Shown one piece after another: positions 6,969-25,870 of a DNA stretch of 32,000 nucleotides. Origin of the DNA: Pirellula staleyi DSM 6068 (lineage in GTDB: Bacteria; Planctomycetota; Planctomycetia; Pirellulales; Pirellulaceae); NCBI GenBank assembly GCA_000025185.1, contig CP001848.1, forward strand, positions 30,001 to 62,000, in the 5' to 3' direction. The notes beneath the pieces are model-generated. The model did not search any database and was not told the origin of the DNA. It saw only the letters and a list, made by a program, of their open reading frames with translations. Position 1 is the stretch's first letter, and each line of letters opens with the position of its first letter. The translations under genes were made by a program, and so were the position numbers.

Positions 6969-7481
6969 TTAGAACGCATCTTCCGGAGTGCCGATCTGCC
7001 GGATTACTTCGTACATCGCCGCCGTCGCCGAGCTCGAAAGGTTGAGACTCCGCACCTGCGGACGCATCGGCAGGCGCAATTTAGCGGAGCTAGGAAACTG
7101 GCTCACGATCTCTTCGGGAAGCCCCGCTGACTCGCAGCCAAACAGCAGCACATCTCCCTGCTCGTAAGTCACGTCGCTATAGCGGCTCTGGCCGAACTTC
7201 GTGAAGAGCCAAACCCGCTGCTGCTCGAACGGCTCGGGAATTTTCGCCCGGATTTCGTCGAGGCTGTCGACCGCTTCCCACTCCAGATGCTGCCAGTAGT
7301 CGAGCCCCGCCCGGCGGAGCTGTTTCTCGGAAATATCGAACCCGAGCGGGCGGACGAGCCACAACTTGGCCCCGACAGCCACGCAGCTGCGACCGATGTT
7401 GCCCGTGTTGGGCGGGATCTCCGGATGCCACAAGATGACATGCAACCGGGGGACATATTTCGCGGATACAGTCACGCGCAC
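6969..7481 (-). CDS. trmL: tRNA (cytidine/uridine-2'-O-)-methyltransferase TrmL (SpoU/TrmH family)
   Basis: LHVILWHPEIPPNTGNIGRSCVAVGAKLWLVRPLGF..LRRAGLDYW...LFGCESAGLPEEI...LRLPMRPQVRSLNLSSSATAAMYE matches E. coli TrmL motif for motif. The longest ORF (to 7634) starts at a TTG and would add about 50 non-homologous residues. GTG at 7481 is preceded by TAAGG. TTG at 7445 would give MHVILWHPEIP. The start is therefore uncertain by about 40 nt. Confidence 0.88.
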   Translation of the reverse strand: MRVTVSAKYVPRLHVILWHPEIPPNTGNIGRSCVAVGAKLWLVRPLGFDISEKQLRRAGLDYWQHLEWEAVDSLDEIRAKIPEPFEQQRVWLFTKFGQSRYSDVTYEQGDVLLFGCESAGLPEEIVSQFPSSAKLRLPMRPQVRSLNLSSSATAAMYEVIRQIGTPEDAF

Positions 7482-7659
7482 TCCAGCCTTAACTTGACCC
7501 ACCCCACTTTTTAGGGAACGATCTACACAGTCCTTCAGGATGAATACCTGACGGAGCAGAAGCGTCCGCTGACAACGGCTCGATGATACCAACTTCATCG
7601 CCCCGCGCGCCGAGCCGTTGCGACTCGAAATCAAACTCTCCTACAAAACGTCTAGGTAC

Positions 7660-8397
7660 ATGACGACCAATCCCTACGAGCCACCGGAATCACGTTCTCC
7701 CAAGCCAACGTCGCACGGAATAAGAAGTGCTGAACTGCGACGCACTATAGCGACGTTTGTGATTATGTTTGTCGGACCCTTCGCAGCGATCATTGCTTTC
7801 TTTACCACGTGTTCCGCAGTTCCGAAATCCAGCGGGCTGATGGTCGTATCGTTCGTTCTTTCGAGTCTTGCAGCGGGAGTAGCCTACAGCTTGGCTGTTT
7901 ACTGCACACTACCGAAATACCGTACCCTTGCTCATCGGAGTGTAACTCGCAGTTCAAAGGCGATTCCAAGTTCGGCAAGCGAGAGCGAGCCGATTACTTC
8001 CGCGAAGAACGAGGGGATCGAGCGAACCTGTCCCGTTTGTCGCCGCAAGATGCCTGACAATAGTCGCCACTGCGAAAACTGTTTGTATGTCGAGCCAGCA
8101 GCCAAGTCCCTCTATCTCGAAGAAGCCAAAGATTTATCGAGCGTCGAATTAGCTCCGATCGCACCACAGCCGATGTCACGCACCACGATCATGTTGATGG
8201 CCCCAGTTGTGGCCATCTTTCTAACGTGCCTCGCAACACTTGTTGTGGCGATCTCCATCGAGCTAAGCCTATCGAGTCGCTTTGGCATCGAGACATTTGC
8301 CATCGCAGCCTTGGCAGCAATTGCAACAGTGGCGGTTGGCCTCATCGCCACCATCGTTGTCACCTTGCGATTTTACAAATGGTACGAACGGTCGTAG
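7660..8397 (+). CDS. Uncharacterised 4-TM membrane protein, paralogue E1: NPYEPP tail, internal CxxC-x9-CxxC zinc ribbon, AFFxTC helix
   Basis: The track ORF begins at TTG 7618. ATG at 7660 gives MTTNPYEPPESRS, in parallel with the N-termini of the next two genes. TM helices include FVGPFAAIIAFFTTC and MAPVVAIFLTCLATLVV. The ribbon is CPVCRRKMPDNSRHCENC. The C-terminus is VVTLRFYKWYERS. The next gene starts 18 nt downstream. Confidence 0.75.
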   Translation: MTTNPYEPPESRSPKPTSHGIRSAELRRTIATFVIMFVGPFAAIIAFFTTCSAVPKSSGLMVVSFVLSSLAAGVAYSLAVYCTLPKYRTLAHRSVTRSSKAIPSSASESEPITSAKNEGIERTCPVCRRKMPDNSRHCENCLYVEPAAKSLYLEEAKDLSSVELAPIAPQPMSRTTIMLMAPVVAIFLTCLATLVVAISIELSLSSRFGIETFAIAALAAIATVAVGLIATIVVTLRFYKWYERS

Positions 8398-8415
8398 TCC
8401 CAGGCGAGCGAACCG

Positions 8416-9167
8416 ATGCCCGACCCAACACCTACCAACCCCTATGAGCCGCCACCAATTGCCAAGCGCTACTGCACAGCATGTGGCAGCGTGGTGATGG
8501 GCAATGACGCTAAGTGCCCCCTATGCGGCGAAGCAGAATCGCTACCCACCAACCGCTGCGCTCACTGCCAAACACTCTGGCGCAGCGACTATCCGTACTG
8601 CCTTGGCTGTGGCCGCTCACACACCGGCAACTATACGACCTCCGGGAAACACAATGGCATCAACCCTCAACGTGCGGCTGCAAATGTGATGATTGTGATA
8701 GCTGCCCCCTTCGCTGCATTTCTGGCATTCTTTGCCACATGCGGCTTCGGAAATACGGGCTTCGACGGTGGAGCTGGGCAATTTTTCTGGCGAGTCTTGC
8801 AGCTGCAGCAACCTTTTCCTTAGTAGTCTTCTTGACGATTCGGAATCGAAGAGAGCCCAAGCCTACGACTGTCGAAGCTGTCGTACCTACCTCCCCTAAA
8901 ACCGCAACCAATCCACCGCATCACCCGAACAAGTCGCTCGCGCACTCGCGTGAGATTTCACCGCAAACCTGGATACTTATCGCACCCTTTGGCATCATTC
9001 TATTGACGTGCTTTATTTCGTTTATTGTCCTCGTTACCTTTCTCGACAATCGCCACACCTCGATTCAAACGGCAATAGGCTTAGGATTTCTAGTAGCTTT
9101 GGCCGGAATAGTCATCGCGGTGGTTGTCACCTTGCGACTCCTTCAACGTGACGAGAAGCCTCAATAA
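8416..9167 (+). pseudogene. Paralogue E2 of the NPYEPP/zinc-ribbon membrane family, interrupted by a frameshift (or an assembly error, or recoding)
   Basis: Frame A (8416..8823) encodes MPDPTPTNPYEPP, a double ribbon (CTACG..CPLCG..CAHCQ..CLGCG) and the helix AAPFAAFLAFFATC, then runs into WRVLQLQQPFP*. Frame B, open to 9167, continues with FLASLAAAATFSLVVF ... ILIAPFGIILLTCFISF ... VVTLRLLQRDEKPQ, which mirrors the second half of E1. The switch maps to the T5 run at 8782-8786. One extra T would give a continuous protein of about 250 aa (E1 is 245 aa). Confidence 0.65.
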
Positions 9168-9183
9168 CCTTGCGACTGAATTG

Positions 9184-9495
9184 ATGGCCGACCAACCCAT
9201 GAACCCTTACGAGTCGCCGCCACCACGCGAAGCTCCTGAGCCGATTATCCTAGAGCCGGTGAAAGTCGGGTTGGCTCAGCTGATTGTGATTGCTGCGATG
9301 GTGCTGCTGATGTTTCCGCTGCTTGGCCTGGGATTCGGCCTGTCGCACTTCGCCGCAGGGATGCTGGTCGAGCAGAATGCTTGGCTCGGCGAGGTGCGGC
9401 CACATCCGCTCGTGCTGGTGGCCCCCTTCGTCGTGGTGCTCGCGATTTTTTCGACCTGGATCTGGCTGATGGCCCGCATTGCCAGTGGCAGATAG
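9184..9495 (+). CDS. Uncharacterised 2-TM membrane protein, paralogue E3: NPYESPP tail, no zinc ribbon
   Basis: The track ORF starts at TTG 9124. ATG at 9184 gives MADQPMNPYESPPPREAPEP, followed by two hydrophobic helices. The second is LVLVAPFVVVLAIFSTWIWLMARIA, which has the APF signature. It begins 16 nt after the E2 stop. Confidence 0.65.
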   Translation: MADQPMNPYESPPPREAPEPIILEPVKVGLAQLIVIAAMVLLMFPLLGLGFGLSHFAAGMLVEQNAWLGEVRPHPLVLVAPFVVVLAIFSTWIWLMARIASGR

Positions 9496-9556
9496 GTGCA
9501 GCGATTGCTGGCCGGAGCTCTTGTACCGCACTTGCAAGACGACGACATTAGAGGCC

Positions 9557-9970
9557 ATGAGCACTCCCGATCCTTCCGCCCAGCTTGGCCCTGAAACCAC
9601 CTGCCCAACCTGCGGACTCCAGATCCCCGCCGGGAGCTCGCAGTGCATCGTGTGCGCCTATGCCTCCCCGCGGCAGGTCACCGATGCTGATCTGGCACCG
9701 CATCGCTCCAAACTCTCAGTCGGCCGAGTGATGGGGATCACCGCCATCGTGATCCTGATGCTCCCTGCCTCGGCGATCGCGTTTTTCGCCACCTGCTTTG
9801 CGACGGCTGTTTCGCTCGACGCCACCATTCCGCAAAACGATCCGTTTATCTATCTCACCACTGGTTTGCTGGTGGGATCGGTCTGTGGCATTGCCACGTT
9901 CGTCGGACTCATTTTCTGGATCGTGCGACTCGCTCGTCCGCGCAGTGCGCAGCCAGTTCAAAATCCCTAG
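9557..9970 (+). CDS. Uncharacterised 2-TM membrane protein, paralogue E4: N-terminal CxxC-x9-CxxC ribbon and AFFATC helix
   Basis: The track ORF starts at TTG 9479. ATG at 9557 gives MSTPDPSAQLGPETTCPTCGLQIPAGSSQCIVCAY. The TM helix ILMLPASAIAFFATCFATAV is followed by a second helix ending FWIVRLARPRS. It begins 61 nt after E3. Confidence 0.65.
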   Translation: MSTPDPSAQLGPETTCPTCGLQIPAGSSQCIVCAYASPRQVTDADLAPHRSKLSVGRVMGITAIVILMLPASAIAFFATCFATAVSLDATIPQNDPFIYLTTGLLVGSVCGIATFVGLIFWIVRLARPRSAQPVQNP

Positions 9971-10113
9971 CCAATCGTTCGCGTTCTCTCAGCGGAAGCG
10001 AGAGCCGAAACGGGCCTTCGAAGCATACTAGCGACTGCGGCGCAAATCGGTGTACTCTGTGGGGCCAGCTGTTCACGAATCGTTCGTGCCGATCCCTTGC
10101 AGAAAATGCTTCC

Positions 10114-11304
10114 ATGAGTGCCACTCCCCAGCAGATCGCTAGTTACACCGCCGCGCTCGACTTTGCCGAGAATCAGGTGGCCCAGCTCGTCGAGCGTTAT
10201 CCCAACTATTTCCCGATGTACACGGTGCAAGGCAAGTGGCATCACACCGGCGAACTTTGGACGCACTGGACCGACGGTTTTCTCGGCGGCATGATGTGGC
10301 AGTTTTGCCTGCGCGGGCATGAAGCACGCTGGCGCAAGCAGGCCGAGCGATACTCGAAACTGCTCGAACATCGCAAGCTCGACCGAGCGGTGCACGACCT
10401 TGGATTTTTGTTCCTCAGCACCTACTTGCCGTGGTACGAACTCTCTGGCGAAGCTGCCCTGCGCGACACGCTGCTGATCGCCGGTCAAACCCTCTCGCTC
10501 CGCTTCATGCAGCCGGGCAATTTTCTCCGCAGCTTCGTGGCGCACGATTCGCTGTTCATCGACATCATAATGAACGTGCCGATCATTTTTTATGCGTCGC
10601 TCGAAATGCGCGATCGCGAGCTCGCGCGCATCGCCGCTGCTCACTGCCGCACCACGCGCGACACCATTGTGCGCGCCGATGGAAGTACGGCTCACGAAGG
10701 GATCTTTGATCTCGATACGGGCGAGTTCCTCGAACAAACGACTCATCAAGGTTTGCGCGGCGATAGTGCCTGGGCTCGCGGCCTCGCCTGGTCGCTCTAT
10801 GGCTACGCCAAATGCTATGCCCTCACCGGCTGCGATGAGTACCTGGAAGTCTCCGAGCGGAACGCCGACTACTGGCTCGCGCACTTGCCCGAAGATGGCG
10901 TTTGCTACTGGGATTTTGATGCCGATCTGTCGCAGCCAGCCCCCTGGGGGGCGCAGAAGGAATCGTCGGCGGCGGCAATTGCCGCCAGTGGTCTCATCGA
11001 CCTTTCGCTGCTGACCAAAGACCCGGCGAAGTCGGCTAAATATCTCGCCTGCGCGACAAAAATGCTCGATGCGCTCGTGACTCCCGAGTATCTTGCGAGC
11101 GAGACACCAGGCTGGGAAGGGATCCTAAAACATGGCGTTTATCACACCGCCAAGAACCTGGGGGTCGATGAATCGGTGATGTGGGGCGAGTACTTTTTTG
11201 TCGAAGCGCTCACCAAGATGGTGACTGGCCGACAGCCGCGCCTCGCGCCTGAAAAGCTGGCCGACAACCAGGCGCGCTACGCCGCCATTGCCCCTGCGCT
11301 GTAG
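10114..11304 (+). CDS. Glycoside hydrolase family 88-like unsaturated glucuronyl hydrolase, cytoplasmic (no signal peptide)
   Basis: ATG at 10114. The motifs WTDGFLGGMMWQ, VHDLGFLFLS and SAWARGLAWSLYGY are those I associate with the GH88/UGL alpha6/alpha6-barrel family. The ORF is 396 aa. The antisense ORF 9967..10884 is a shadow. Confidence 0.88.
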   Translation: MSATPQQIASYTAALDFAENQVAQLVERYPNYFPMYTVQGKWHHTGELWTHWTDGFLGGMMWQFCLRGHEARWRKQAERYSKLLEHRKLDRAVHDLGFLFLSTYLPWYELSGEAALRDTLLIAGQTLSLRFMQPGNFLRSFVAHDSLFIDIIMNVPIIFYASLEMRDRELARIAAAHCRTTRDTIVRADGSTAHEGIFDLDTGEFLEQTTHQGLRGDSAWARGLAWSLYGYAKCYALTGCDEYLEVSERNADYWLAHLPEDGVCYWDFDADLSQPAPWGAQKESSAAAIAASGLIDLSLLTKDPAKSAKYLACATKMLDALVTPEYLASETPGWEGILKHGVYHTAKNLGVDESVMWGEYFFVEALTKMVTGRQPRLAPEKLADNQARYAAIAPAL

Positions 11305-11355
11305 TTTTTGTTCCCGATTGGCTCCGATGCGTCCACTCCCTCCCAGGCACTCCCC

Positions 11356-13431
11356 ATGAAATACCTACCGCTGTTTTTCGCCTCGGTGACGCTTGTACTA
11401 ACTCTGTCGCACGCAGTGCTGGCCGATGGTCCGGCCGATAACAAAACGGAAAACGTGCGGCGGATTCCCAAACTGGGGATCGAGCTGACAGCCGAGCAGC
11501 GTGCGAGCGTCGAGCAAGCTCTTGCGCCGATTGACGCTGAACTGGTGAAACTCCGCGCGAGCAAATCTCCGCTGGTGCGCGAACTCCTTCCCGACGTCGA
11601 AATTTTTGCAAAGGCGCTGCGCGACGCGCTGCAGTATCAAGAGTTCTTCGACCCGAAGGATCTCGAGTTCGTTCCAAAGTGCGCCGCCGAAGGACTCGCT
11701 CGCGCTCAGTCGCTTGCCAAAGGCGAAGCACCGTGGACCAAGCAGACAGGGCTTGTGGTGCGCGGCTATCGCTCGACACTCGACGACAGCGTGCAGCCGT
11801 TTGGCATGGTGATCCCCGCCAACTATCCCGAAATTGCGGCGGAAAAAGTGCGCTGCGATGTCTGGCTGCATGGCCGTGGCGAAACGCTCAGCGAACTCAA
11901 TTTTCTGCGCGACCGAACCAGCAACGTCGGACAGATTTCACCAGCCGACACCGTGGTGCTGCATCCTTATGGGCGCTATTGCAACGCCAACAAGTTTGCG
12001 GGGGAGATCGATATTCTCGAGTCGCTGACAGCGGCGAAACGAATGTATCGGATCAACGAGCGGCTCGTCGCGATGCGTGGATTTTCGATGGGTGGCGCTG
12101 GTGCGTGGCAAATGGCGGTCCACTATCCCGATATGTGGTTCGCCGCCAATCCAGGGGCAGGATTTTCAGAAACGCCCGACTTTTTGAAAGTGTTCCAGAA
12201 CGAAACGCTCCAGCCTCGCTGGTGGGAAAAGCAGCTGTGGCAGTGGTATGACTGCACCGTTTGGTCGAGCAATCTGGTGGAGTTGCCGACGATTGCTTAC
12301 AGCGGCGAAATCGACAAACAGAAGCAAGCGGCCGACATTATGGCGATCGCGATGCAGCAGCGGCGTTTGAATCTCGAGCACATCATCGGCCCCCAAACGG
12401 CGCACAGCATTCACCCCGATTCGAAGAAAGAGATCGAAGCGCGTCTAGCGTCGATTGCTTCAGTTCCACGCCCGGCAGCGATGCCCCATCTGCATCTCAC
12501 CACCTACACGCTTCGCTATCCGCAAGTCGACTGGATCCGTATCGAAGGGATGCAAGAGCACTGGACGAAAGGGACGGTGGCCGGACTTGTCTCTGAAGGT
12601 GGCATTCGGATCGATACCACAGGGGTTACCGACCTGGCGATCCATTTCAAAGCCGGAACAGCTCCGATCTACCCACGTGGCAATGTGAAGGTGACGCTCG
12701 ACCAGCAAGAGCTGTTTCTACCTGGCGTGAAGAGCGATCGTAGTTTGTCGGCTGCGTTCTACCTCGATGGAAAAACATGGATGCTGGGGAAACGCGACAC
12801 TGGTAAGCAGCTCCGCAAAAAGCCTGGTCTCCAAGGACCGATCGACGATGCCTTTCTCTCGCGCTTTTTGTTCGTGAAGCCGAGTGGTAAGAGCAAGCAT
12901 GAACTAGTCGAGAAGTGGACGCAGAGTGAACTGGCTCGCGCGATCGAACATTGGCGACGTCACTTCCGTGGCGAAGCGCGGGTGAAACTCGACAGCGAAG
13001 TGACGGCCGAAGATATTGCCGATTCGAACCTCATTCTGTGGGGAGATGCGACGAGCAATTCGCTGATTGCGAAAATCAACGATCGTTTGCCGGTCCGCTA
13101 CAGCGACGACACGATTGTGGCTGGCGAGGCGTCGAAGCCGAGCAATCAACACGCGCTTGTGGCGATCTATCCGAATCCAGAAAACCCCGAGAAGTATGTG
13201 GTGCTCAACAGCAGCTTCACGTTCCGCGACTATGCCTACCTGAACAACGCGCGGCAGGTTCCGATGCTCCCCGACTGGGCGATTGTCGATCTCACAACAC
13301 CTCCAGGTGGTGTCTGGCCGGGGAAGATTGTCGAGGCCAACTTTTTTGACGAAGCGTGGCAACTCAAACCGTATCGCGACGTGAACAGCACCTACGACGA
13401 CTATCAGCCTCTCGCGGTTCCACAGCCGTAA
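11356..13431 (+). CDS. Secreted alpha/beta-hydrolase fold protein (esterase or S9-like peptidase)
   Basis: The track ORF starts at TTG 11308. ATG at 11356 gives a clean signal peptide, MKYLPLFFASVTLVLTLSHAVLADGP. The nucleophile-elbow GxSxG motif appears in RGFSMGGAGAW. The ORF encodes 691 aa. Confidence 0.82.
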   Translation: MKYLPLFFASVTLVLTLSHAVLADGPADNKTENVRRIPKLGIELTAEQRASVEQALAPIDAELVKLRASKSPLVRELLPDVEIFAKALRDALQYQEFFDPKDLEFVPKCAAEGLARAQSLAKGEAPWTKQTGLVVRGYRSTLDDSVQPFGMVIPANYPEIAAEKVRCDVWLHGRGETLSELNFLRDRTSNVGQISPADTVVLHPYGRYCNANKFAGEIDILESLTAAKRMYRINERLVAMRGFSMGGAGAWQMAVHYPDMWFAANPGAGFSETPDFLKVFQNETLQPRWWEKQLWQWYDCTVWSSNLVELPTIAYSGEIDKQKQAADIMAIAMQQRRLNLEHIIGPQTAHSIHPDSKKEIEARLASIASVPRPAAMPHLHLTTYTLRYPQVDWIRIEGMQEHWTKGTVAGLVSEGGIRIDTTGVTDLAIHFKAGTAPIYPRGNVKVTLDQQELFLPGVKSDRSLSAAFYLDGKTWMLGKRDTGKQLRKKPGLQGPIDDAFLSRFLFVKPSGKSKHELVEKWTQSELARAIEHWRRHFRGEARVKLDSEVTAEDIADSNLILWGDATSNSLIAKINDRLPVRYSDDTIVAGEASKPSNQHALVAIYPNPENPEKYVVLNSSFTFRDYAYLNNARQVPMLPDWAIVDLTTPPGGVWPGKIVEANFFDEAWQLKPYRDVNSTYDDYQPLAVPQP

Positions 13432-19974: not shown

Positions 19975-20262
19975 ATGACGATCGAATTCTCGTGCTTCGA
20001 TTGCGGACAACTCGTCAAAACTCCCGCTTCGGCGGCGGGTAAGAAGGGTCGTTGTCCCCATTGCGGCACCATCGTTCAGATACCGGCTGAAGCTCCCAAG
20101 CCAGCCCCTCCTCCTCCGCCGCCACCTCCACCAGCCCCACCCGCAGCAGCCGTGGCGATTGAGTTTCCCTGCCCCAAGTGCAACGGACTGGTGCGGACTC
20201 CGCTGTCAGCTGCGGGCAAAAAGGGACGCTGCCCCCACTGCACCACAGTGGTGCAGATTCCG
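19975..20262 (+). repeat. Intragenic tandem duplication of the zinc-ribbon module, separated by a poly-proline run
   Basis: Protein-level repeat: aa 1-36 (19975-20082) and aa 60-96 (20152-20262) share the pattern IEFxCxxCxxLVxTPxSAAGKKGRCPHCxTxVQIP. The spacer PKPAPPPPPPPPPAPP is at about 20095-20139. The DNA copies have diverged, so the duplication is old. Confidence 0.75.
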
Positions 20263-21795
20263 GGGACTTCTCCAGCAGCGCTAGCTCCCACCACAGCAGC
20301 TCCTTCAGCTGCGGCTAAAAAGCCGGTGCCAGAGCCCGTGGCTGCGAAGCCGACACCACCGCCACCTGCCAAACCGAAGTTCGACGACGAACTCACGCTG
20401 GCCGACGATCCCGATCATCCGATTACGACCCCAGCCCCCAAGCCAGCCCCTAAGCCGACTCCCGACCCAGCCAAGGGGGTTAAGCCAGCCGCTGCTAAAC
20501 CGGCCACGCAGCCAGCTGCAGCGCAGCCGTCGGCCAAGCCTGCTGCGCCCGCCAAGCCATCAGGGGCTAAGCCGACAGCACCTGCTGCTGCGTCTTCAAC
20601 CAAACCGACCGTGAAGCCCGCAGCTGCCAGTGGTGCGAAACCGGCGGCCACCACCCCGGCAGCGACGAAGCCGGTCGCTAAACCAACCACCCCTGGCAAA
20701 CCTGCTGCGGGGGGCAAAACGATTCCGGTCGCCAAACCGATCGCCGCGCCGGGAGCGAAGGCCCAACAGCCGACCAACGAACAGTTCGACGATCTGCTTC
20801 CACTGGAAGAAGAAGAATCGCTCGAGGATCTTCCTGTTCTCGAAACCAACGACCTCGGTGGGCTAACACCGCTCACCGATCTGGGGCCGATCCCTGGCAC
20901 AGGACTCCCGGCTATCGGCGCGCCGATGCTCCCCGGAGCGAGCACCGGTGGCACCCTGTTCGCCGCGATGCCCCTGGCCGCTGGACAAGCCACGCCGTTT
21001 GGCACCGACCCAGCCGACGCAGGTTTTCTGCTGGCGAGCGATCCGACCCTTGGCTTACCCGCCTTGCCCCCCAATCCCTATGCGTCACCCGGGGTCAGTT
21101 TGCCATCCGCGAGCCCGGGGCTTGGTTCATCGTTTGTCAGTGGCCCCCGAGAACGGACGGGACTTCCGTGGGATATCGAAGTCTCCGCCGCTGCCTACTG
21201 GCAAACAGCCAAGATGCTGGTCTTCAGCCCATCGCAAGGTTTTGCCGTCATGCACCGGACGGGTGGCGTGAGTGGTCCGCTGGGCTACGCGCTCATCGGA
21301 CTCATGATCGGCCCGCTGGGCGCCCTCTTGTTGATCTATCTCTTTATGATGCTGGTGCTCCTTGTCTCCACCGGCAACTTTGAAGCGATGGTGGGGCTCA
21401 CGCTCATCTTTGCAATCTACGGAATATCGACCTCCGCGGGGATGATGGTGAGTGGCTGTATTGGGCTCCTTGTCGGGGCTGGAATCTCGCACCTCTGCTT
21501 GATGCTGGTCGGTGGCGCGACGCGCCCCTACGAAACCACGTTTCGCGTGCTGGCTTACACCAACGGCTCGGTGGCGCTCATCGGATTCATTCCGTTCATT
21601 GGTGCCATCATCCAAATCGTTTTGACGATTGTGCTGCTGATTAATGGCTACGCCTCGGCACACGGCATCAGCGCGGGACGAGCGGCGCTCGCTGTCTTTT
21701 TGCCTTTGATCGTACTGGGAGGATGTATCTTCGTCGGCATTATGATGCTGACAGGTCTCGTCGCCGCATCGGGACCAAACCCCTCCTCGTTTTAA
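19975..21795 (+). CDS. Uncharacterised membrane protein A: two MJ0042-like zinc ribbons, Pro/Ala/Lys-rich linker, NPYASP and GLPW motifs, Yip1-like polytopic C-terminal domain
   Basis: ATG at 19975. IEFSCFDCGQLVKTPASAAGKKGRCPHCGTIVQIP is repeated as IEFPCPKCNGLVRTPLSAAGKKGRCPHCTTVVQIP. A run of nine Pro follows, then a linker of about 160 aa rich in KPA/KPT, then an acidic patch. PPNPYASP is at 21067-21090 and GLPWD at 21160-21174. The C-terminal domain has about 5 TMs and the motifs HLCLMLVGG and TFRVLAYTNGSVA. Confidence 0.8.
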   Translation: MTIEFSCFDCGQLVKTPASAAGKKGRCPHCGTIVQIPAEAPKPAPPPPPPPPPAPPAAAVAIEFPCPKCNGLVRTPLSAAGKKGRCPHCTTVVQIPGTSPAALAPTTAAPSAAAKKPVPEPVAAKPTPPPPAKPKFDDELTLADDPDHPITTPAPKPAPKPTPDPAKGVKPAAAKPATQPAAAQPSAKPAAPAKPSGAKPTAPAAASSTKPTVKPAAASGAKPAATTPAATKPVAKPTTPGKPAAGGKTIPVAKPIAAPGAKAQQPTNEQFDDLLPLEEEESLEDLPVLETNDLGGLTPLTDLGPIPGTGLPAIGAPMLPGASTGGTLFAAMPLAAGQATPFGTDPADAGFLLASDPTLGLPALPPNPYASPGVSLPSASPGLGSSFVSGPRERTGLPWDIEVSAAAYWQTAKMLVFSPSQGFAVMHRTGGVSGPLGYALIGLMIGPLGALLLIYLFMMLVLLVSTGNFEAMVGLTLIFAIYGISTSAGMMVSGCIGLLVGAGISHLCLMLVGGATRPYETTFRVLAYTNGSVALIGFIPFIGAIIQIVLTIVLLINGYASAHGISAGRAALAVFLPLIVLGGCIFVGIMMLTGLVAASGPNPSSF

Positions 21796-22022
21796 GTTCG
21801 AGGAACCCCAAAAACTTAAGCTTTCAACTATCGCGGCGTGCCTAGCGGCCGAGTACAATCCCGACGCTGTAAGGCCGCGCCGAAAACACCCTGCCATGGA
21901 TGAGAAGTCGACTTCAGCTTCCGATCGAGCACCGGTCTCACAGCCAAGGCCTACAGCCCCTCTCCGGCCCGCAGCCTTTTGCTTCCCTTCGATGCACAAC
22001 CTAGCTACTTGGAAATCGCCGG

Positions 22023-23108
22023 ATGGCTATTGAATTTCGTTGCGATCAGTGTGGTCAATTGCTGCGCGTTCCGGATAACACAGCAGGCAAAAGCGCCCGC
22101 TGTCCGAAATGCCAAGCGATGATGACGATTCCCGCGCAGTCGCCTCCAGGCGGTGCTGGCCCAGCAACCGGTCCGGCAACTCCCCCTGCTGCACCTGTTT
22201 CGCAGTTTCCAAGCACACCCACTGGCCCCGTCGACCAGCCGGCACCACTCCCCACGCTCGGAGCCCCCACGAGTTCCAGCCCGTTTGGTTCACCACCAGC
22301 AGGCGGCTCGCTCTTTGAAGGGGCTCCCCTCAGCCCACCCCCGAAGCCAGCCGGCAATCCTTTTGGCGAGGGAGGTATGGGGTCACCTCCGGGTGCCAAC
22401 CCGTTTGGCCAACCGTCCGAAGCCAACCCTTATGCTTCACCACTGAGCATCTACACTCCGCAATCAGGCCAGCAAGGTCTTCCGTGGGAAGTAAAGGGGC
22501 AAAACTTCGGCACCTGGATGGAGACCACAAAGCTGTTCATCTCGGATTCAGCCCGGGCTTTCACCATCATGCATCCACGTGGTGGGATCGGTGGCCCGAT
22601 GGTGTTTGCCCTGCTGGGGATGTCTATCGGTGCCGCTGGTGGTTTGTTTTGGAACTTAGTGATGCTTCTGGGCCTCGGGATTGTTGCAGGAGCCAATGGC
22701 CAAGGCGATGCAGCAGCCCCCCTGGCCATTCAAGCCGTCACCCAAGTGGGCGCTAGCATCATCGGCACGCTGCTGGGAGCCACGCTCGGGCTTTTGTTCC
22801 AGTCGGCCATTATTCACGTATGCTGCATGGTCGTGGGTGGTGGAAAAACGGGTTTCGATGCCACATTTCGCGTCTTGGCCTACTCCAACGGCGCTCTCGC
22901 GTTCCTGCAATGGATTCCGATCGCGGGTGCCTTAGTTCTCGCGATTTGGGTGCTCGTTCTGGTGATCGTTGGCCTGGCCAAAGTGCACGAAATGCATGTC
23001 GGCAAAACGATCCTGGCGGTATTCCTCCCCGTGATCGTCTGCTGTGTTGTCACCCTGGGCATTGTGGCGCTCGCCGGTGGAGCAGGCGTGCTGATGAACG
23101 CACGCTAA
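22023..23108 (+). CDS. Uncharacterised membrane protein B, paralogue of A: one MJ0042-like ribbon, Pro-rich linker with NPF/NPF/NPY triplet, GLPW, Yip1-like domain
   Basis: ATG at 22023 gives MAIEFRCDQCGQLLRVPDNTAGKSARCPKCQAMMTIP. The motifs GNPFG, ANPFG and ANPYASP span 22356-22442. GLPWEV follows. The membrane domain is clearly homologous to A: FTIMHPRGGIGGP, HVCCMVVGG, TFRVLAYSNGALA, ILAVFLPVIV. Confidence 0.8.
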   Translation: MAIEFRCDQCGQLLRVPDNTAGKSARCPKCQAMMTIPAQSPPGGAGPATGPATPPAAPVSQFPSTPTGPVDQPAPLPTLGAPTSSSPFGSPPAGGSLFEGAPLSPPPKPAGNPFGEGGMGSPPGANPFGQPSEANPYASPLSIYTPQSGQQGLPWEVKGQNFGTWMETTKLFISDSARAFTIMHPRGGIGGPMVFALLGMSIGAAGGLFWNLVMLLGLGIVAGANGQGDAAAPLAIQAVTQVGASIIGTLLGATLGLLFQSAIIHVCCMVVGGGKTGFDATFRVLAYSNGALAFLQWIPIAGALVLAIWVLVLVIVGLAKVHEMHVGKTILAVFLPVIVCCVVTLGIVALAGGAGVLMNAR

Positions 23109-23174
23109 CCGCTTCGGAGAGCCTGTTTCTGAGTTAAACCTGCGACCGAAATAAATCTTAGCTTTCCTCTTCTG

Positions 23175-23207
23175 GCACCTCGCGGCCATTGCTGCGAGGT
23201 GCTTTTT
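23175..23207 (+). terminator. Rho-independent terminator after gene B
   Basis: GCACCTCGC (23175-23183) pairs with GCGAGGTGC (23194-23202) across a 10-nt loop, followed by TTTTT (23203-23207). Confidence 0.7.
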
Positions 23208-23302
23208 GCTACGCAAACATGCTCTAGCTTTGGCCTTGCGCTTTCTCTCCAGCGCAGGCTAGCAATCCTTGGCTCCTGCCCCTCGCGACAAGATGCACCG
23301 CG

Positions 23303-24187
23303 ATGAATTCGAGTCCCGCTGGAGAGAATCCCTTTGCCTCCCCGCAGCCGCTGCGCGCCAGCGAGATTGCCAGCGAAGAGCGGGCGACTCATCCCTTTGC
23401 CGATAGCCCCGAGACCCCGGCGGATATCACCATCGAGGCGATTCCACCCGGCTTGCCGTGGAACCATCGGCTGGGGCTCTTTAGCTGGCTGAAGACCGCC
23501 GAGAGGCTGTTCTTCACGCCGCGCAAGGCGATGGAGTCCTATCGCCCAGCCACCTCGCCATGGGGTGCCTATGGCTTTCTTGCTATTGGCCTCCTCCTCT
23601 CGCTCGGACTCACAGCGGCCATCTGCTACCTCGTTTACCACCTGGAATTTGGTTCCTCTTCTCAGCCCCAAGACCAAATCTCTGAACTTCTCGCAGCCTC
23701 TGACAAACAACTGCTCATCAGCACCCTGCAGTCGATGGCTGCGATCACCCTGCTGTTGGTGCTCGTGATCATTCCGCTGCGCGTGCTGTTAACGCACGGG
23801 CTCTTAAAACTGATGGGAACCTGCCGCTTCAGCATGACACGCACGGCGGAAGCGATTTTCCTTTCGCTCGGCGCAGCCCAGCTCGTGAGTTGGACCACGA
23901 AACCCTTACGGTATGTCCTACCGATCATGAAACTCGAGGAGCTCTCACTCCTGCTGAGCGGAGTGGCGGCCGGGCTCTTGCTCTGGCAGTTCTACCGCGA
24001 GATTGTCGGTCTAGCGGTGGTGCAGCGAATCTCGATGCGACGCAGTTTGGTCGTCAATCTGCTGGTGCAAATCATTATCGGCCTCGCGATCTTCGTGGTG
24101 GCTTTAGGGTACATGACCTACATCGATCTGCAGCGCATCTCGGCAGCCTCCGAGACCTTCAATCCATCAGCAGCCCAGCGCCCTTGA
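23303..24187 (+). CDS. Uncharacterised membrane protein C: NPFASP tail, GLPW, divergent Yip1-like polytopic domain, no zinc ribbon
   Basis: ATG at 23303 gives MNSSPAGENPFASPQPL. PPGLPWNHRLGLFSWLKTAERLFF parallels the GLPW-plus-helix entry of A and B. Five or so hydrophobic helices follow. HGLLKLMGTCRFSMTRTAEAIFLSLG aligns loosely with HVCCMVVGGGKTGFDATFRVLAYSNG of B. Confidence 0.7.
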   Translation: MNSSPAGENPFASPQPLRASEIASEERATHPFADSPETPADITIEAIPPGLPWNHRLGLFSWLKTAERLFFTPRKAMESYRPATSPWGAYGFLAIGLLLSLGLTAAICYLVYHLEFGSSSQPQDQISELLAASDKQLLISTLQSMAAITLLLVLVIIPLRVLLTHGLLKLMGTCRFSMTRTAEAIFLSLGAAQLVSWTTKPLRYVLPIMKLEELSLLLSGVAAGLLLWQFYREIVGLAVVQRISMRRSLVVNLLVQIIIGLAIFVVALGYMTYIDLQRISAASETFNPSAAQRP

Positions 24188-24340
24188 TCGCGTATGTTTC
24201 TAATACGTTTTTGCAGCTGCTGGGTCAGACTGGCAGACCCCGGTGCGACCGGCAAATTCGTTACGTTCCGAAATTACTAGCCAGAGCCCCTAGTAAGTGA
24301 TTAAACTACGGACGTTGCAACTTCTCGTCGGGGATTTCTC

Positions 24341-25870
24341 ATGACCATTGTCGCCTGTCCGCGTTGCCGAGATTCCGTTCGGATTCCGGCCCGTGCTTCC
24401 AATACCGCCATCGTCCGCTGCCCACTCTGTGAGGAAGAATTTCCGATCACCGAGGCCTACGGACAGATTCCCGAACTCGAGATCATCTCGGGCGCACTTC
24501 CCACGTCGAGCTACGCAGCCGACGATGCGGGCGAACTCAACGCCTACGCCTCCCCCGAGCCAACGGAATACGCCGTTGCTCCTGCCGGTGACGGCGTGTT
24601 CGGCACCACAGGCCCCAGCGGCTCCACGGCCGTGATGCCTGTGTCGGGCGTGAAGGGGAAGATTCGCAAAAAGAAAGAAAAATCGGCGATCGCCGAAATG
24701 TTCAAAGTGGTGATGGGGGGCGTAGTCGGAATCGGTCTCGCCCTGGTCGTCCTCTGGTGGGGCTTTAAGACCGACCCGATGGGGATCATTCCTTACGTCC
24801 CATCGTGGGCTGCGTTTATTGTTCCACCCGCGATGCGCGCCGCACCCAAGCCCGACAACACCGCCGGCGGCGCGGGAAATCAGCTCGCTCAGAACAATGG
24901 CATCGACACGAGCGGCAGTCCTGTTCCGGTGGTTCCGAACACACCAGCGGGCGGAGGTTTCATGCCCGCTGATCCTGCCAGCGGCAACAATGCCAGTGGC
25001 GGTTCCTTCGGCTCGGCTGCTGGCGAGCTAACACCTCCTACCGAACTCCCCCCCTTCGATCCCTTGGCCAATACCAGCGGCGAAATGGAACTCCCCGATC
25101 TCGGAACTCCGACGATCGAAACACCTCCCGAACTCGGTCCACCCGCCGAACTCCCCGGTCTTGATCCATCGAGCGTCCCCTCAATCGATCCGCCAGCGAC
25201 CGATCCGCTGAACACCGATCCACCGAGCTCGCCCAATCCAGCTCCACTTCCGGGGCTCGATCCGATGCCAACAGAGCCACAGCCTCTTCCCGAAGCCCCC
25301 CCGGGAACGGAACCTGTGATCTACACCGCTGCCGATTTGCTCAGCTCGGTTTCGAAAGCAGCGGAAGCTCGCAACGTCTTTAAGAACGCCGATCCTGCGG
25401 ATCGCGCTGGCCGTCAAGAACTGGCTCGCCAGATGTATGCCTCGGTCGCTGCGACGGCCAAGATCCTTCCGTCACTCAGCCTCGAAGATGCCGACAACGC
25501 CGATGCTGTAACAGCCGTCTCGGATCTCCTCACGTCGATTGCTACCGAAGTGCCCGAGACCGTCGTCGGTTTTCTCGGCCGCGAACGTTACGAAGCAAGC
25601 GAAGGAGATTCGCAAATGCTGGTGGCGGGCGAGGTGATCGACATTCGCGCTGTAGGCAGCATGTTCGAGTGCGTTGTGAAAATGAAGACCAAAGACAATC
25701 TCGAAGTCACGCTTCTCTCGAGCAAAAACCCGCAAGACAAGTGCGCTGTTGGCGACACGGTGATGGTGGTCGGCAGCAAAGTGGTCGACCCCGCCAAGAA
25801 CGTCGGTGGCTATGAAGGCATGGCCCCTAAAGTGGTCACGTGGGACTACGGCGTGAAGATCGCCAAGTAG
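24341..25870 (+). CDS. Uncharacterised single-pass membrane protein D: MJ0042-like ribbon, NAYASP, Lys-rich stop-transfer plus TM, Pro-rich region, C-terminal globular domain
   Basis: ATG at 24341 gives MTIVACPRCRDSVRIPARASNTAIVRCPLCEEEFPI. ELNAYASPEP follows. KGKIRKKKEKS precedes the TM helix VVMGGVVGIGLALVVLWWGF. The Pro-rich stretch spans roughly 24850-25300. The C-terminal region of about 180 aa ends in a beta-rich segment (MLVAGEVIDIRAVGSMFECVVKMKTKDNLEVTLLSS...VMVVGSKVV). A strong terminator lies 52 nt downstream. Confidence 0.75.
   Translation: MTIVACPRCRDSVRIPARASNTAIVRCPLCEEEFPITEAYGQIPELEIISGALPTSSYAADDAGELNAYASPEPTEYAVAPAGDGVFGTTGPSGSTAVMPVSGVKGKIRKKKEKSAIAEMFKVVMGGVVGIGLALVVLWWGFKTDPMGIIPYVPSWAAFIVPPAMRAAPKPDNTAGGAGNQLAQNNGIDTSGSPVPVVPNTPAGGGFMPADPASGNNASGGSFGSAAGELTPPTELPPFDPLANTSGEMELPDLGTPTIETPPELGPPAELPGLDPSSVPSIDPPATDPLNTDPPSSPNPAPLPGLDPMPTEPQPLPEAPPGTEPVIYTAADLLSSVSKAAEARNVFKNADPADRAGRQELARQMYASVAATAKILPSLSLEDADNADAVTAVSDLLTSIATEVPETVVGFLGRERYEASEGDSQMLVAGEVIDIRAVGSMFECVVKMKTKDNLEVTLLSSKNPQDKCAVGDTVMVVGSKVVDPAKNVGGYEGMAPKVVTWDYGVKIAK

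Follow-up and report, generated by a model that had tools for sequence, protein, structure and literature searches.

A tandem array of small predicted membrane proteins beside trmL in Pirellula staleyi and its variation among strains

Identity determinants of the Proteus IdsE type and the immunity proteins against membrane effectors are small, span the inner membrane several times and fall into deep allelic classes among nearly identical strains; they are encoded in tandem arrays of variable copy number. In yeast, double N-terminal NPY motifs of Sso2 bind the PH domain of Sec3 (PMC9427108). In LITAF/SIMPLE, a hydrophobic segment that does not span the bilayer splits two zinc knuckles (PMC5142333), and envelope-stress proteins of the PspC type carry N-terminal zinc ribbons (PMC11237479). 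Here, we analyze a tandem array of four genes, E1 to E4, at positions 7660-9970 of a 32,000-nucleotide (nt) stretch of the Pirellula staleyi DSM 6068 genome (contig CP001848.1, positions 30,001 to 62,000). This whole stretch is referred to as the window and its own numbering is used throughout. Sequence comparison identifies the four gene products as paralogues of one undescribed protein family that is restricted to Pirellulaceae, and among strains of P. staleyi the first of them, E1, falls into three classes as old as a species split.

The array resembles the described systems in part. As with Sso2-type NPY and NPF motifs, Asn-Pro-Tyr stands at the extreme, presumably cytoplasmic N-terminus of a membrane-anchored protein, but the bacterial motif reads NPYxSP with a conserved Ser/Pro-Pro, and the likeness is an analogy that implies no homology. 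Like LITAF, the array proteins are small and combine an N-terminal motif region rich in proline with a zinc ribbon and a hydrophobic membrane hairpin (PMC5142333). Here, in contrast, the two CxxC knuckles both come before the hairpin, which has two helices and a basic tail and is followed by no second knuckle. The sequences do not match either, and membership of the LITAF/SIMPLE family was rejected. PspC-type proteins likewise fuse a zinc ribbon to a small membrane-associated domain, but the array proteins match neither PspC nor LiaI-LiaF-TM nor Toastrack, and no psp or lia genes are found nearby. Generic zinc-ribbon proteins with transmembrane helices (DZR, Zn_Ribbon_1) also place a cytoplasmic CxxC-x10-CxxC before the membrane helices, with E2 showing a double ribbon, and UniProt labels Psta_0032 as 'DZANK-type domain-containing' and Psta_0035 as 'Zinc ribbon domain-containing'. 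However, these models cover the ribbon only and leave the LPAAxIAFFxTC hairpin unmodelled, and the scores fall under their thresholds. From IdsE-type and immunity genes the array differs in that it lacks cognate toxin, effector and secretion genes and is vertically inherited among housekeeping genes; no homology is implied.

Family and module structure of the array

Pairwise blastp matched E1 (residues 109-233) to E4 (residues 2-123) at 1e-8, E1 to E2 over their C-terminal parts at 6e-6, E2 to E3 and to E4 at 3e-4 and 2e-4, respectively, and E3 to E4 at 5e-3. In a wider comparison, 23 modules from several genomes are densely linked by matches, nearly each of them matching several others, with E4 as the hub. 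These E-values and the network bear out the original prediction, made by a model from the sequence alone, of paralogues built from shuffled modules. E4 also provides the best link to P0011 (4e-15), a single-copy syntenic gene of a distant relative, and links to P0014 and F6 as well; it is the most ancestral-like module. The prediction had further proposed that E3 and E4 together roughly match E1. This holds for the architecture and for E4, which aligns with the C-terminal half of E1 at the E-value given above. The layout of E3, an NPY head followed by a hairpin, is that of the N-terminal half of E1, but the sequence match is weak (E ~0.02). The genes and their modules are located as follows, E1 being 100% identical to Psta_0031 and the models of Psta_0032-0035 having been assigned by exact-sequence look-up:

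7660..8397, plus strand: E1 (Psta_0031, 245 amino acids (aa)), with NPYEPP head, hairpin A, linker with one Cys4 ribbon, hairpin B and VVTLR tail
7669..7686, plus strand: NPYEPP motif of E1
7744..7908, plus strand: E1 hairpin A (aa 29-83), signature GPFAAIIAFFTTC with Cys51
8029..8082, plus strand: E1 Cys4 zinc ribbon (C124-C141), CPVC-x10-CENC followed by LYVEP, with sub-threshold Pfam DZR and Zn_Ribbon_1 matches
8182..8367, plus strand: E1 hairpin B (aa 175-236), signature APVVAIFLTC with Cys190
8416..9167, plus strand: E2 (Psta_0032 and Psta_0033), with NPYEPP head, double Cys4 ribbon, hairpin A, linker, hairpin B and VVTLR tail
8473-8610, plus strand: E2 double Cys4 ribbon, units at aa 20-37 and 48-65
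8701-8739, plus strand: E2 hairpin A signature APFAAFLAFFATC
8782-8787, plus strand: E2 frameshift site, TTTTTC here as against TTTTTCC in L001 and TTTTTTC in L004, one base short
9184..9495, plus strand: E3 (Psta_0034, 103 aa, or 98 aa if the ATG at 9199 is the start), with NPYESP head and one hairpin, no ribbon
9557..9970, plus strand: E4 (Psta_0035, 137 aa), with Cys4 ribbon (9602-9655), YASP (9659-9670) and hairpin (9725-9934)

Four co-directional open reading frames (ORFs) had been predicted. The coordinates of E1, E3 and E4, the spacers of 18, 16 and 61 nt between successive genes and the divergent orientation relative to a TrmL-like SpoU methylase stand, whereas E2 is read in two frames. 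E1-E4 most likely form one operon, and scans for sigma-70 promoters and terminators gave nothing useful. The translations contain NPYE[PS]P within residues 1-13 of E1, E2 and E3 and end in VVTLR in E1 and E2, and the ribbons are placed as described before: between the second and third transmembrane helix in E1, doubled at the N-terminus of E2, single at the N-terminus of E4 and absent from E3. Two details had to be revised. The ribbon spacing had been given as CxxC-x9-CxxC, but the translations read CxxC-x10-CxxC. Among the signature helices, GPFAAIIAFFTTC, APVVAIFLTC and APFAAFLAFFATC are present, as are APFGIILLTC (in frame B of E2, with the internal Cys200) and PASAIAFFATC (in the hairpin of E4, with Cys80), but the helix named for E3 was misplaced: APFVVVLAIFS sits in the second helix of this protein, and its true signature is the first helix MFPLLGLGFGLSH, where end-to-end alignment with P0014 shows TC replaced by SH.

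The family unit comprises about 100-140 aa: a presumably cytoplasmic head and a basic residue lead into two helices that are joined by a short loop, and a Lys/Arg tail ends the unit. The head is either an NPYxSP peptide or a Cys4 ribbon that is directly followed by [AL]YxSP, and about half of the family members carry the peptide instead of the ribbon. Since the C-[AL]-Y-x-S/E-P after the second knuckle of E4, E1, F4, F6 and P0011 aligns with the N-P-Y-x-S-P of the ribbon-less heads, both head types share a YxSP core. The first helix reads [LF]PAAxIAFFxTC, with the Cys found in 15 of 15 aligned sequences (alignment A4) and one Ala and one Phe nearly invariant; E3 and two paralogues from L005 and L010, all outside this alignment, lack the Cys. 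The loop between the helices has 6-26 residues, and the second helix is often rich in small residues before it runs into the Lys/Arg tail. The complete unit is found twice in E1, twice in E2 and in E4, and all of it except the Cys in E3. The work thereby defines a new, narrowly distributed protein family and the grammar of its modules.

A deletion of 1 nt at 8782-8787, overlooked when E2 was first read as one ORF, splits this gene. Frame A (8416-8823, 135 aa, Psta_0032) encodes NPYEPP, the two ribbons and APFAAFLAFFATC, and frame B, in the -1 frame and ending at 9167 (111 aa called from 8832, Psta_0033), encodes the second helix, APFGIILLTC and VVTLR. Addition of one base to the TTTTTC tract yields a 250-aa E2 that is identical to the intact L001 protein, and the intact 250-aa form is present in four other assemblies (P0003, P0021, P0022, P0023). 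As the remainder of E2 differs from L001 by a single synonymous change, the frameshift is either a very recent inactivation or an error in the reference sequence. Phase variation at this site was ruled out, the run being merely T5. The reference annotation is corrected in that Psta_0032 and Psta_0033 are halves of one gene.

From their hydropathy profiles, E1 and E2 contain four helices each, and the shorter E3 and E4 contain two. Lys and Arg cluster in the N-terminal regions, the long middle linkers and the C-terminal tails, with hardly any in the short loops, a distribution that by the positive-inside rule would place heads, ribbons and tails in the cytoplasm and leave 6-26 residues per hairpin facing outward. 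Judged from this composition, the hairpins probably adopt an N-in/C-in topology in the inner membrane. For E4, AlphaFold2 (AF2) predicts a ribbon and a helical hairpin (H55-90/H96-126) with a mean predicted local distance difference test score (pLDDT) of 70.6 and a value of about 78 for the ribbon. A Foldseek search against the PDB returned merely insignificant RanBP2/NZF-type mini-ribbon matches to the E4 ribbon (E>0.7).

In searches of Pfam and NCBIfam no curated threshold was reached, sub-threshold zinc-ribbon models alone recur across members, and a Pfam scan of 15 members matched no family consistently. E2, with its two Cys4 units, scores 21.6 bits against DZR (PF12773; E 2.5e-4, gathering threshold 27.3), a model that also gives sub-threshold matches in 6 of the 15 members. 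E4 and E1 reach 18.8 and 13.1 bits, respectively, against Zn_Ribbon_1 (PF13240; threshold 25); the Cys4 pattern of a putative zinc ribbon is present in both. The best E-values in PADLOC-DB (0.028 and 0.14) belong to unrelated models. In PHROGs, the E2 ribbon alone finds a match, to a PHROG of unknown function (5e-5), with the membrane module unmatched, and the family profile run against all PDB sequences produced compositional or generic ribbon matches only. The earlier statement that no characterised family fits is thus upheld across Pfam, NCBIfam, PADLOC, PHROGs, the PDB and Foldseek.

The distribution of the family is equally narrow. Word-indexed searches with E1, E2 and the module profile returned the P. 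staleyi group only. A hidden Markov model search of 1.84 billion cluster representatives yielded 16 proteins at E<=1e-3, two of which are spurious repeat proteins, leaving about 14 true members that are all Pirellulaceae-like. The remote members P0011, P0012 and P0014-P0017 have 94-149 aa and carry NPYxSP or one ribbon followed by [LV]PAAxxxFFxTC; P0012 and P0016 bear double motifs, NPF plus NPY. Two further loci, both from metagenome-assembled genomes (MAGs) of Pirellulaceae, were found when one genome of each prokaryotic species was scanned. Scans of JGI metagenomes with the family profile and with the conserved leader upstream of E1 found nothing, INPHARED phages, IMG/VR viral contigs and plasmids contained no relatives, and a literature search for the Psta locus tags and NPYxxP strings gave nothing relevant. 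On a TARA marine planctomycete-like contig (L010), two members are adjacent (355-687, 110 aa, and 837-1253, 138 aa, the second with NPF and NPY), showing that tandem pairs exist outside Pirellula, too. P0015, on JGI 3300071358, belongs to a series of six small genes of one orientation (61-120 aa) that have no Pfam matches, perhaps a tandem array of the family in yet another organism.

Allele classes of E1 and copy number at the trmL site

The most interesting feature of the array is a strain-level hypervariability of E1 that was absent from the first reading of the sequence. Over 18 kb the window is 98-99% identical to L001 with the exception of a tract in E1, which is flanked on both sides by sequence of 98-100% identity:

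7675..8335, plus strand: E1 hypervariable tract, 0-77% identity per 60-nt bin against L001 (43-77% where aligned), with an indel of ~160 nt

E1 proteins sort into three classes:

Class I: 245 aa, with ribbon; DSM 6068 and L004
Class II: 196 aa, without ribbon; L001
Class III: 193 aa, without ribbon (the L007 allele); L007, L008 and L009

Class I proteins are about 98% identical to one another. Between the classes, divergence at synonymous sites (dS) is 0.9-1.4 and at non-synonymous sites (dN) 0.32-0.42, giving a ratio omega of about 0.3, and flanking genes of the same strains show a dS of 0.03-0.06. For flanking genes of P. staleyi and the species represented by L005, dS is 0.85-1.5 and dN 0.08-0.15. 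The dS between E1 classes therefore equals that of the flanks at species level, and the allele classes are as old as the species split; as their dN exceeds that of the flanks between species, E1 proteins are also more diverged than the orthologous neighbors. NPYxxP, the two signature helices and the VTLR tail are nonetheless retained in every class. Runs of a single SRR accession series, which probably represents one sequencing project, contain class I as well as class III. The outward loop of hairpin B has about 12, 18 and 26 residues across the classes, and in class II (L001 ~10410-10465) a tandem duplication, PIFIDLTL / PIFIDLIL, extends it to ~26 residues. Several contigs start (L004, L017) or end (L008, L009) inside the array, as expected if co-occurring strains differ there and thereby break the assembly.

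A diversity-generating retroelement was rejected as the source of the E1 variation since it includes indels and changes of all four bases, and the Pfam-annotated genes within 20 kb of the array include no reverse transcriptase, mobile element or recombinase. The classes could result from balancing selection, from import from another lineage or from differential loss of old paralogues. Among strains, E2-E4 differ at synonymous sites (pS) by 0.005-0.07 and at non-synonymous sites (pN) by 0-0.013, with pN/pS of about 0.05-0.45. The E2 head compared with the head of F1, the first array gene of L005, gives a dS of 0.69 and a dN of 0.073; given this dN/dS of 0.11 and the much greater divergence of the hairpin behind it, the head is the most constrained part. 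Overall, the substitution ratios indicate that the array genes are under purifying selection. The presence of three E1 classes in genomes of 98-99% identity offers a natural experiment on whether a cytoplasmic-membrane protein of a free-living bacterium is under balancing or diversifying selection.

The array occupies a conserved block of the order metalloprotease, P-II, trmL (minus strand), array (plus strand) and GH88. Its divergent neighbor is the following gene:

6969..7475, minus strand: TrmL-like SpoU methyltransferase, ORF extendable to 7634

The protein matches Pfam SpoU_methylase at 1.8e-29, and its top NCBIfam match is TrmL (3e-46, under the equivalog cutoff). trmL also adjoins family genes in L001, L005, L007, L015 and the JGI contig with P0011. 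At this site, that JGI contig of a distant relative carries a single ribbon-plus-hairpin gene and the Pirellulaceae MAG L015 one family gene, L007 carries three, and DSM 6068, L001 and L004 carry four. L005, a species-level relative with flanks 73-80% identical, has six co-directional family genes. The first of these, F1, corresponds to the N-terminal half of E2 as a separate gene, with a head 83% identical, and the others are single ribbon-plus-hairpin modules, one of them reduced to a single helix; the ribbon of E1 is similar to those of F2 and F3. In L007, E2 is absent and the N-terminus of E3 is replaced. The synteny check suggested along with the original prediction thus found that copy number varies (1/3/4/6) beside a conserved trmL, and these numbers, together with the arrangements in L005 and L007, are direct evidence of duplication, fusion, fission and loss. 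The earlier proposal of gene fission or fusion with ongoing duplication is borne out by the six-gene array with its stand-alone E2 half and by the single-gene distant relatives.

From these comparisons, the ancestral state is one family gene divergent from trmL, followed by tandem expansion in the P. staleyi lineage. Fusion gave rise to two copies with two hairpins each, E1 and E2, into which ribbons were inserted at differing points; E3 plus E4 are the split equivalent of E1. DNA repeats in the array are negligible, with one exact repeat of 15 nt that encodes VVTLR, which indicates that the P. staleyi paralogues are old and that no recent duplication occurred; recombination-site-like flanks around the array were not found in the repeat analysis. 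In the L005 array (10001-12677), the gene at 10622-11050 (142 aa) had been missed by public gene calls, and the gene at 11478-11777 is truncated to a ribbon and a single helix.

Heads shared with Yip1-domain proteins and the possible role of the array

Translated in six frames, the window contains NP[YF]xxP seven times, compared with 0.35 expected from shuffles (20-fold; at most 3 in 300 shuffles), and all seven sites lie in real plus-strand genes. Four of them fall into three genes of a second cluster:

19975-25870, plus strand: second cluster, four co-directional genes encoding 606, 361, 294 and 509 aa, three of which start with a Cys4 ribbon

In genes 1-3 of this cluster, NPF/NPY-x-x-P at 21073, 22398, 22425 and 23327 precedes GLPW and a membrane domain of several helices, and in genes 1 and 2 Pro/Ala-rich linkers stand before the motifs. 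Two of the genes encode a Yip1 domain (PF04893, ~1e-11, 5 helices) that is unrelated to the hairpin module (hhalign probability 0.15%). The Yip1 proteins of the window (19975-23108) are thus like E1-E4 in having an N-terminal Cys4 ribbon and NP[YF]xxP before the membrane domain and unlike them in having a five-helix Yip1 domain instead of the hairpin. With the same heads on unrelated anchors, the heads behave as portable modules. A peak in GC content (0.654) with strong skews at 20001-21000 coincides with the low-complexity, Pro/Ala-rich linker in the Yip1 protein of 606 aa.

We tentatively favor, at somewhat less than an even chance, a role of the array proteins as oligomeric hairpin bundles that present their heads as docking sites for a soluble partner, in common with the Yip1-type proteins. 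The hairpins would pack into homo- or hetero-oligomeric membrane bundles, in which E1, E2 and the E3-E4 pair would be the four-helix units, and these bundles would expose almost nothing to the periplasm. NPYxSP and zinc-ribbon heads would be displayed on the cytoplasmic face as short linear docking sites and would tether or sequester the partner. As the Yip1-domain proteins ~10 kb downstream bear the same kinds of heads, the reader of the heads would probably be common to both. E1 allele replacement, gene gain and loss and the E2 frameshift indicate that the composition of the set is in rapid turnover, which suggests that its specificity or dosage is tuned by diversifying selection. Several points weigh against this docking role. 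It is drawn from the conservation of the heads and from an analogy with eukaryotic short linear motifs. It does not account for the invariant Cys, a residue that E3 lacks. The earlier suggestion that this membrane Cys together with the zinc ribbons points to more than a structural role is speculative. A small-xxx-small pattern occurs in about half of the second helices, and AF2 predicts the four helices and ribbon of E1 at low confidence (pLDDT 55). Moreover, a scaffold does not obviously account for three E1 classes that date back to the species split, for which conflict or recognition would be a better fit.

The main alternative, a conflict or recognition locus in which the array would encode polymorphic membrane proteins for immunity, exclusion or self-recognition and E1 would be the specificity subunit under negative frequency-dependent selection, appears somewhat unlikely, and so do its variants, protection from a membrane-acting toxin or from phage injection and kin-recognition determinants. 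The species-level dS between E1 classes in strains of 98-99% identity, with each class under purifying selection, argues for such a locus, as do the joint presence of classes I and III within one SRR accession series, the copy numbers of 3/4/6 with one copy inactivated, the variable outward loop of hairpin B and the repeated breaks of metagenome contigs within the array. On the other hand, the vicinity contains neither a toxin nor a secretion system, mobile element, recombinase or prophage; the neighbors are housekeeping genes in a synteny conserved across genera, and in other genera the site holds one copy only. Nor were there PADLOC or PHROG matches or relatives in the phage, plasmid and viral collections, and constraint is strongest in the cytoplasmic heads rather than in the exposed loops. 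A bolder reading is unlikely: NPYxSP and mini ribbons might form a bacterial docking code of short linear motifs, used by the hairpin family and Yip1-domain proteins alike at the cytoplasmic side of planctomycete membranes and resembling the eukaryotic NPY/NPF trafficking motifs, with the array as a set of polymorphic receptors for one reader whose E1 alleles have been balanced since before the species split. Quite unlikely is a small oligomeric pore or channel, in which small-residue zippers would hold a ring together as in a holin, viroporin or c-ring and the heads would act as gates or regulators. Runs of [GAS]xxx[GAS]xxx[GAS] in the second helix of E4, P0014, P0017, E2 and others, the hairpin architecture with short loops and isolated weak matches to a holin and a two-transmembrane Pfam model are consistent with a pore. 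However, about one in two members lacks the zipper, the weak Pfam matches occur in one member each and far under threshold, the alignment shows no conserved polar or charged pore-lining residues, and the gene context has no pointer to transport or lysis.

The remaining explanations carry little weight. It is very unlikely that the first helix is a lipoprotein-type signal peptide with an FFxT-C lipobox and that the mature products are short lipid-anchored or secreted peptides. The invariant Cys does follow small or hydrophobic residues, and a basic residue precedes the hydrophobic stretch, but position -1 is Thr, where the lipobox [LVI][ASTVI][GAS]C of a signal peptide of ~35 residues or fewer has Gly, Ala or Ser. 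In addition, 46-109 residues separate the Cys from the N-terminus, with ribbons that are predicted to fold in front of it, the motif recurs internally at Cys190 of E1 and Cys200 of E2, and in E4 and E1 hairpin B the helix runs 7-10 residues beyond the Cys. Most improbable is that E1 and E2 are a diverged four-helix family of the SUR7/PalI, claudin or tetraspanin-like kind or that the hairpin is a fragment of Yip1. E1 matches SUR7/PalI (PF06687, also precomputed for Psta_0031) with an E-value of 4.6e-6, but the score of 26.9 bits stays under the cutoff of 29.6, the alignment covers profile positions 106-165 of 201 and thus one hairpin, and only one of the four four-helix members matches at all; membership was rejected on these grounds. 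So was membership of Yip1 (PF04893), against which E4 reaches 15.6 bits (E 0.015, cutoff 28.6), given the hhalign probability obtained with the Yip1 domains of the window. No Pfam family is consistent over the 15 members, and this explanation is largely refuted. It is just as improbable that the ORFs are non-functional or decaying lineage-specific sequence. The frameshift of E2 in the reference, the tiny size of the family and the lack of a known function would fit decay, but purifying selection acts on the genes, different genera share the synteny and the signature residues, and E2 is intact in the four other assemblies. Should the docking idea be true, a 6-residue peptide and a ~20-residue ribbon would provide a handle on membrane recruitment in the Planctomycetes, whose membranes are unusual. 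If none of the proposed roles is true, the array represents one more lineage-specific family of unknown function, a kind common in this phylum.

A conserved leader upstream of E1

The region upstream of E1 contains a further conserved element:

7560..7659, core ~7594-7640, plus strand: leader, 83-90% identical between DSM 6068 and the L005 species, with flanking coding DNA 73-80% identical

In the E1 frame, substitutions in the leader fall evenly on all three codon positions, with no third-position bias. An N-terminal extension of E1 was rejected, given this lack of bias, an in-frame stop at 7570 and other candidate starts in L005. A search of the whole window against Rfam gave no family, and the predicted fold of the leader has almost no covariation support. 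The leader is probably regulatory or a 5' untranslated region rather than coding, as judged from its pattern of substitution, and it may be a regulatory element common to the divergent trmL and E1 promoters.

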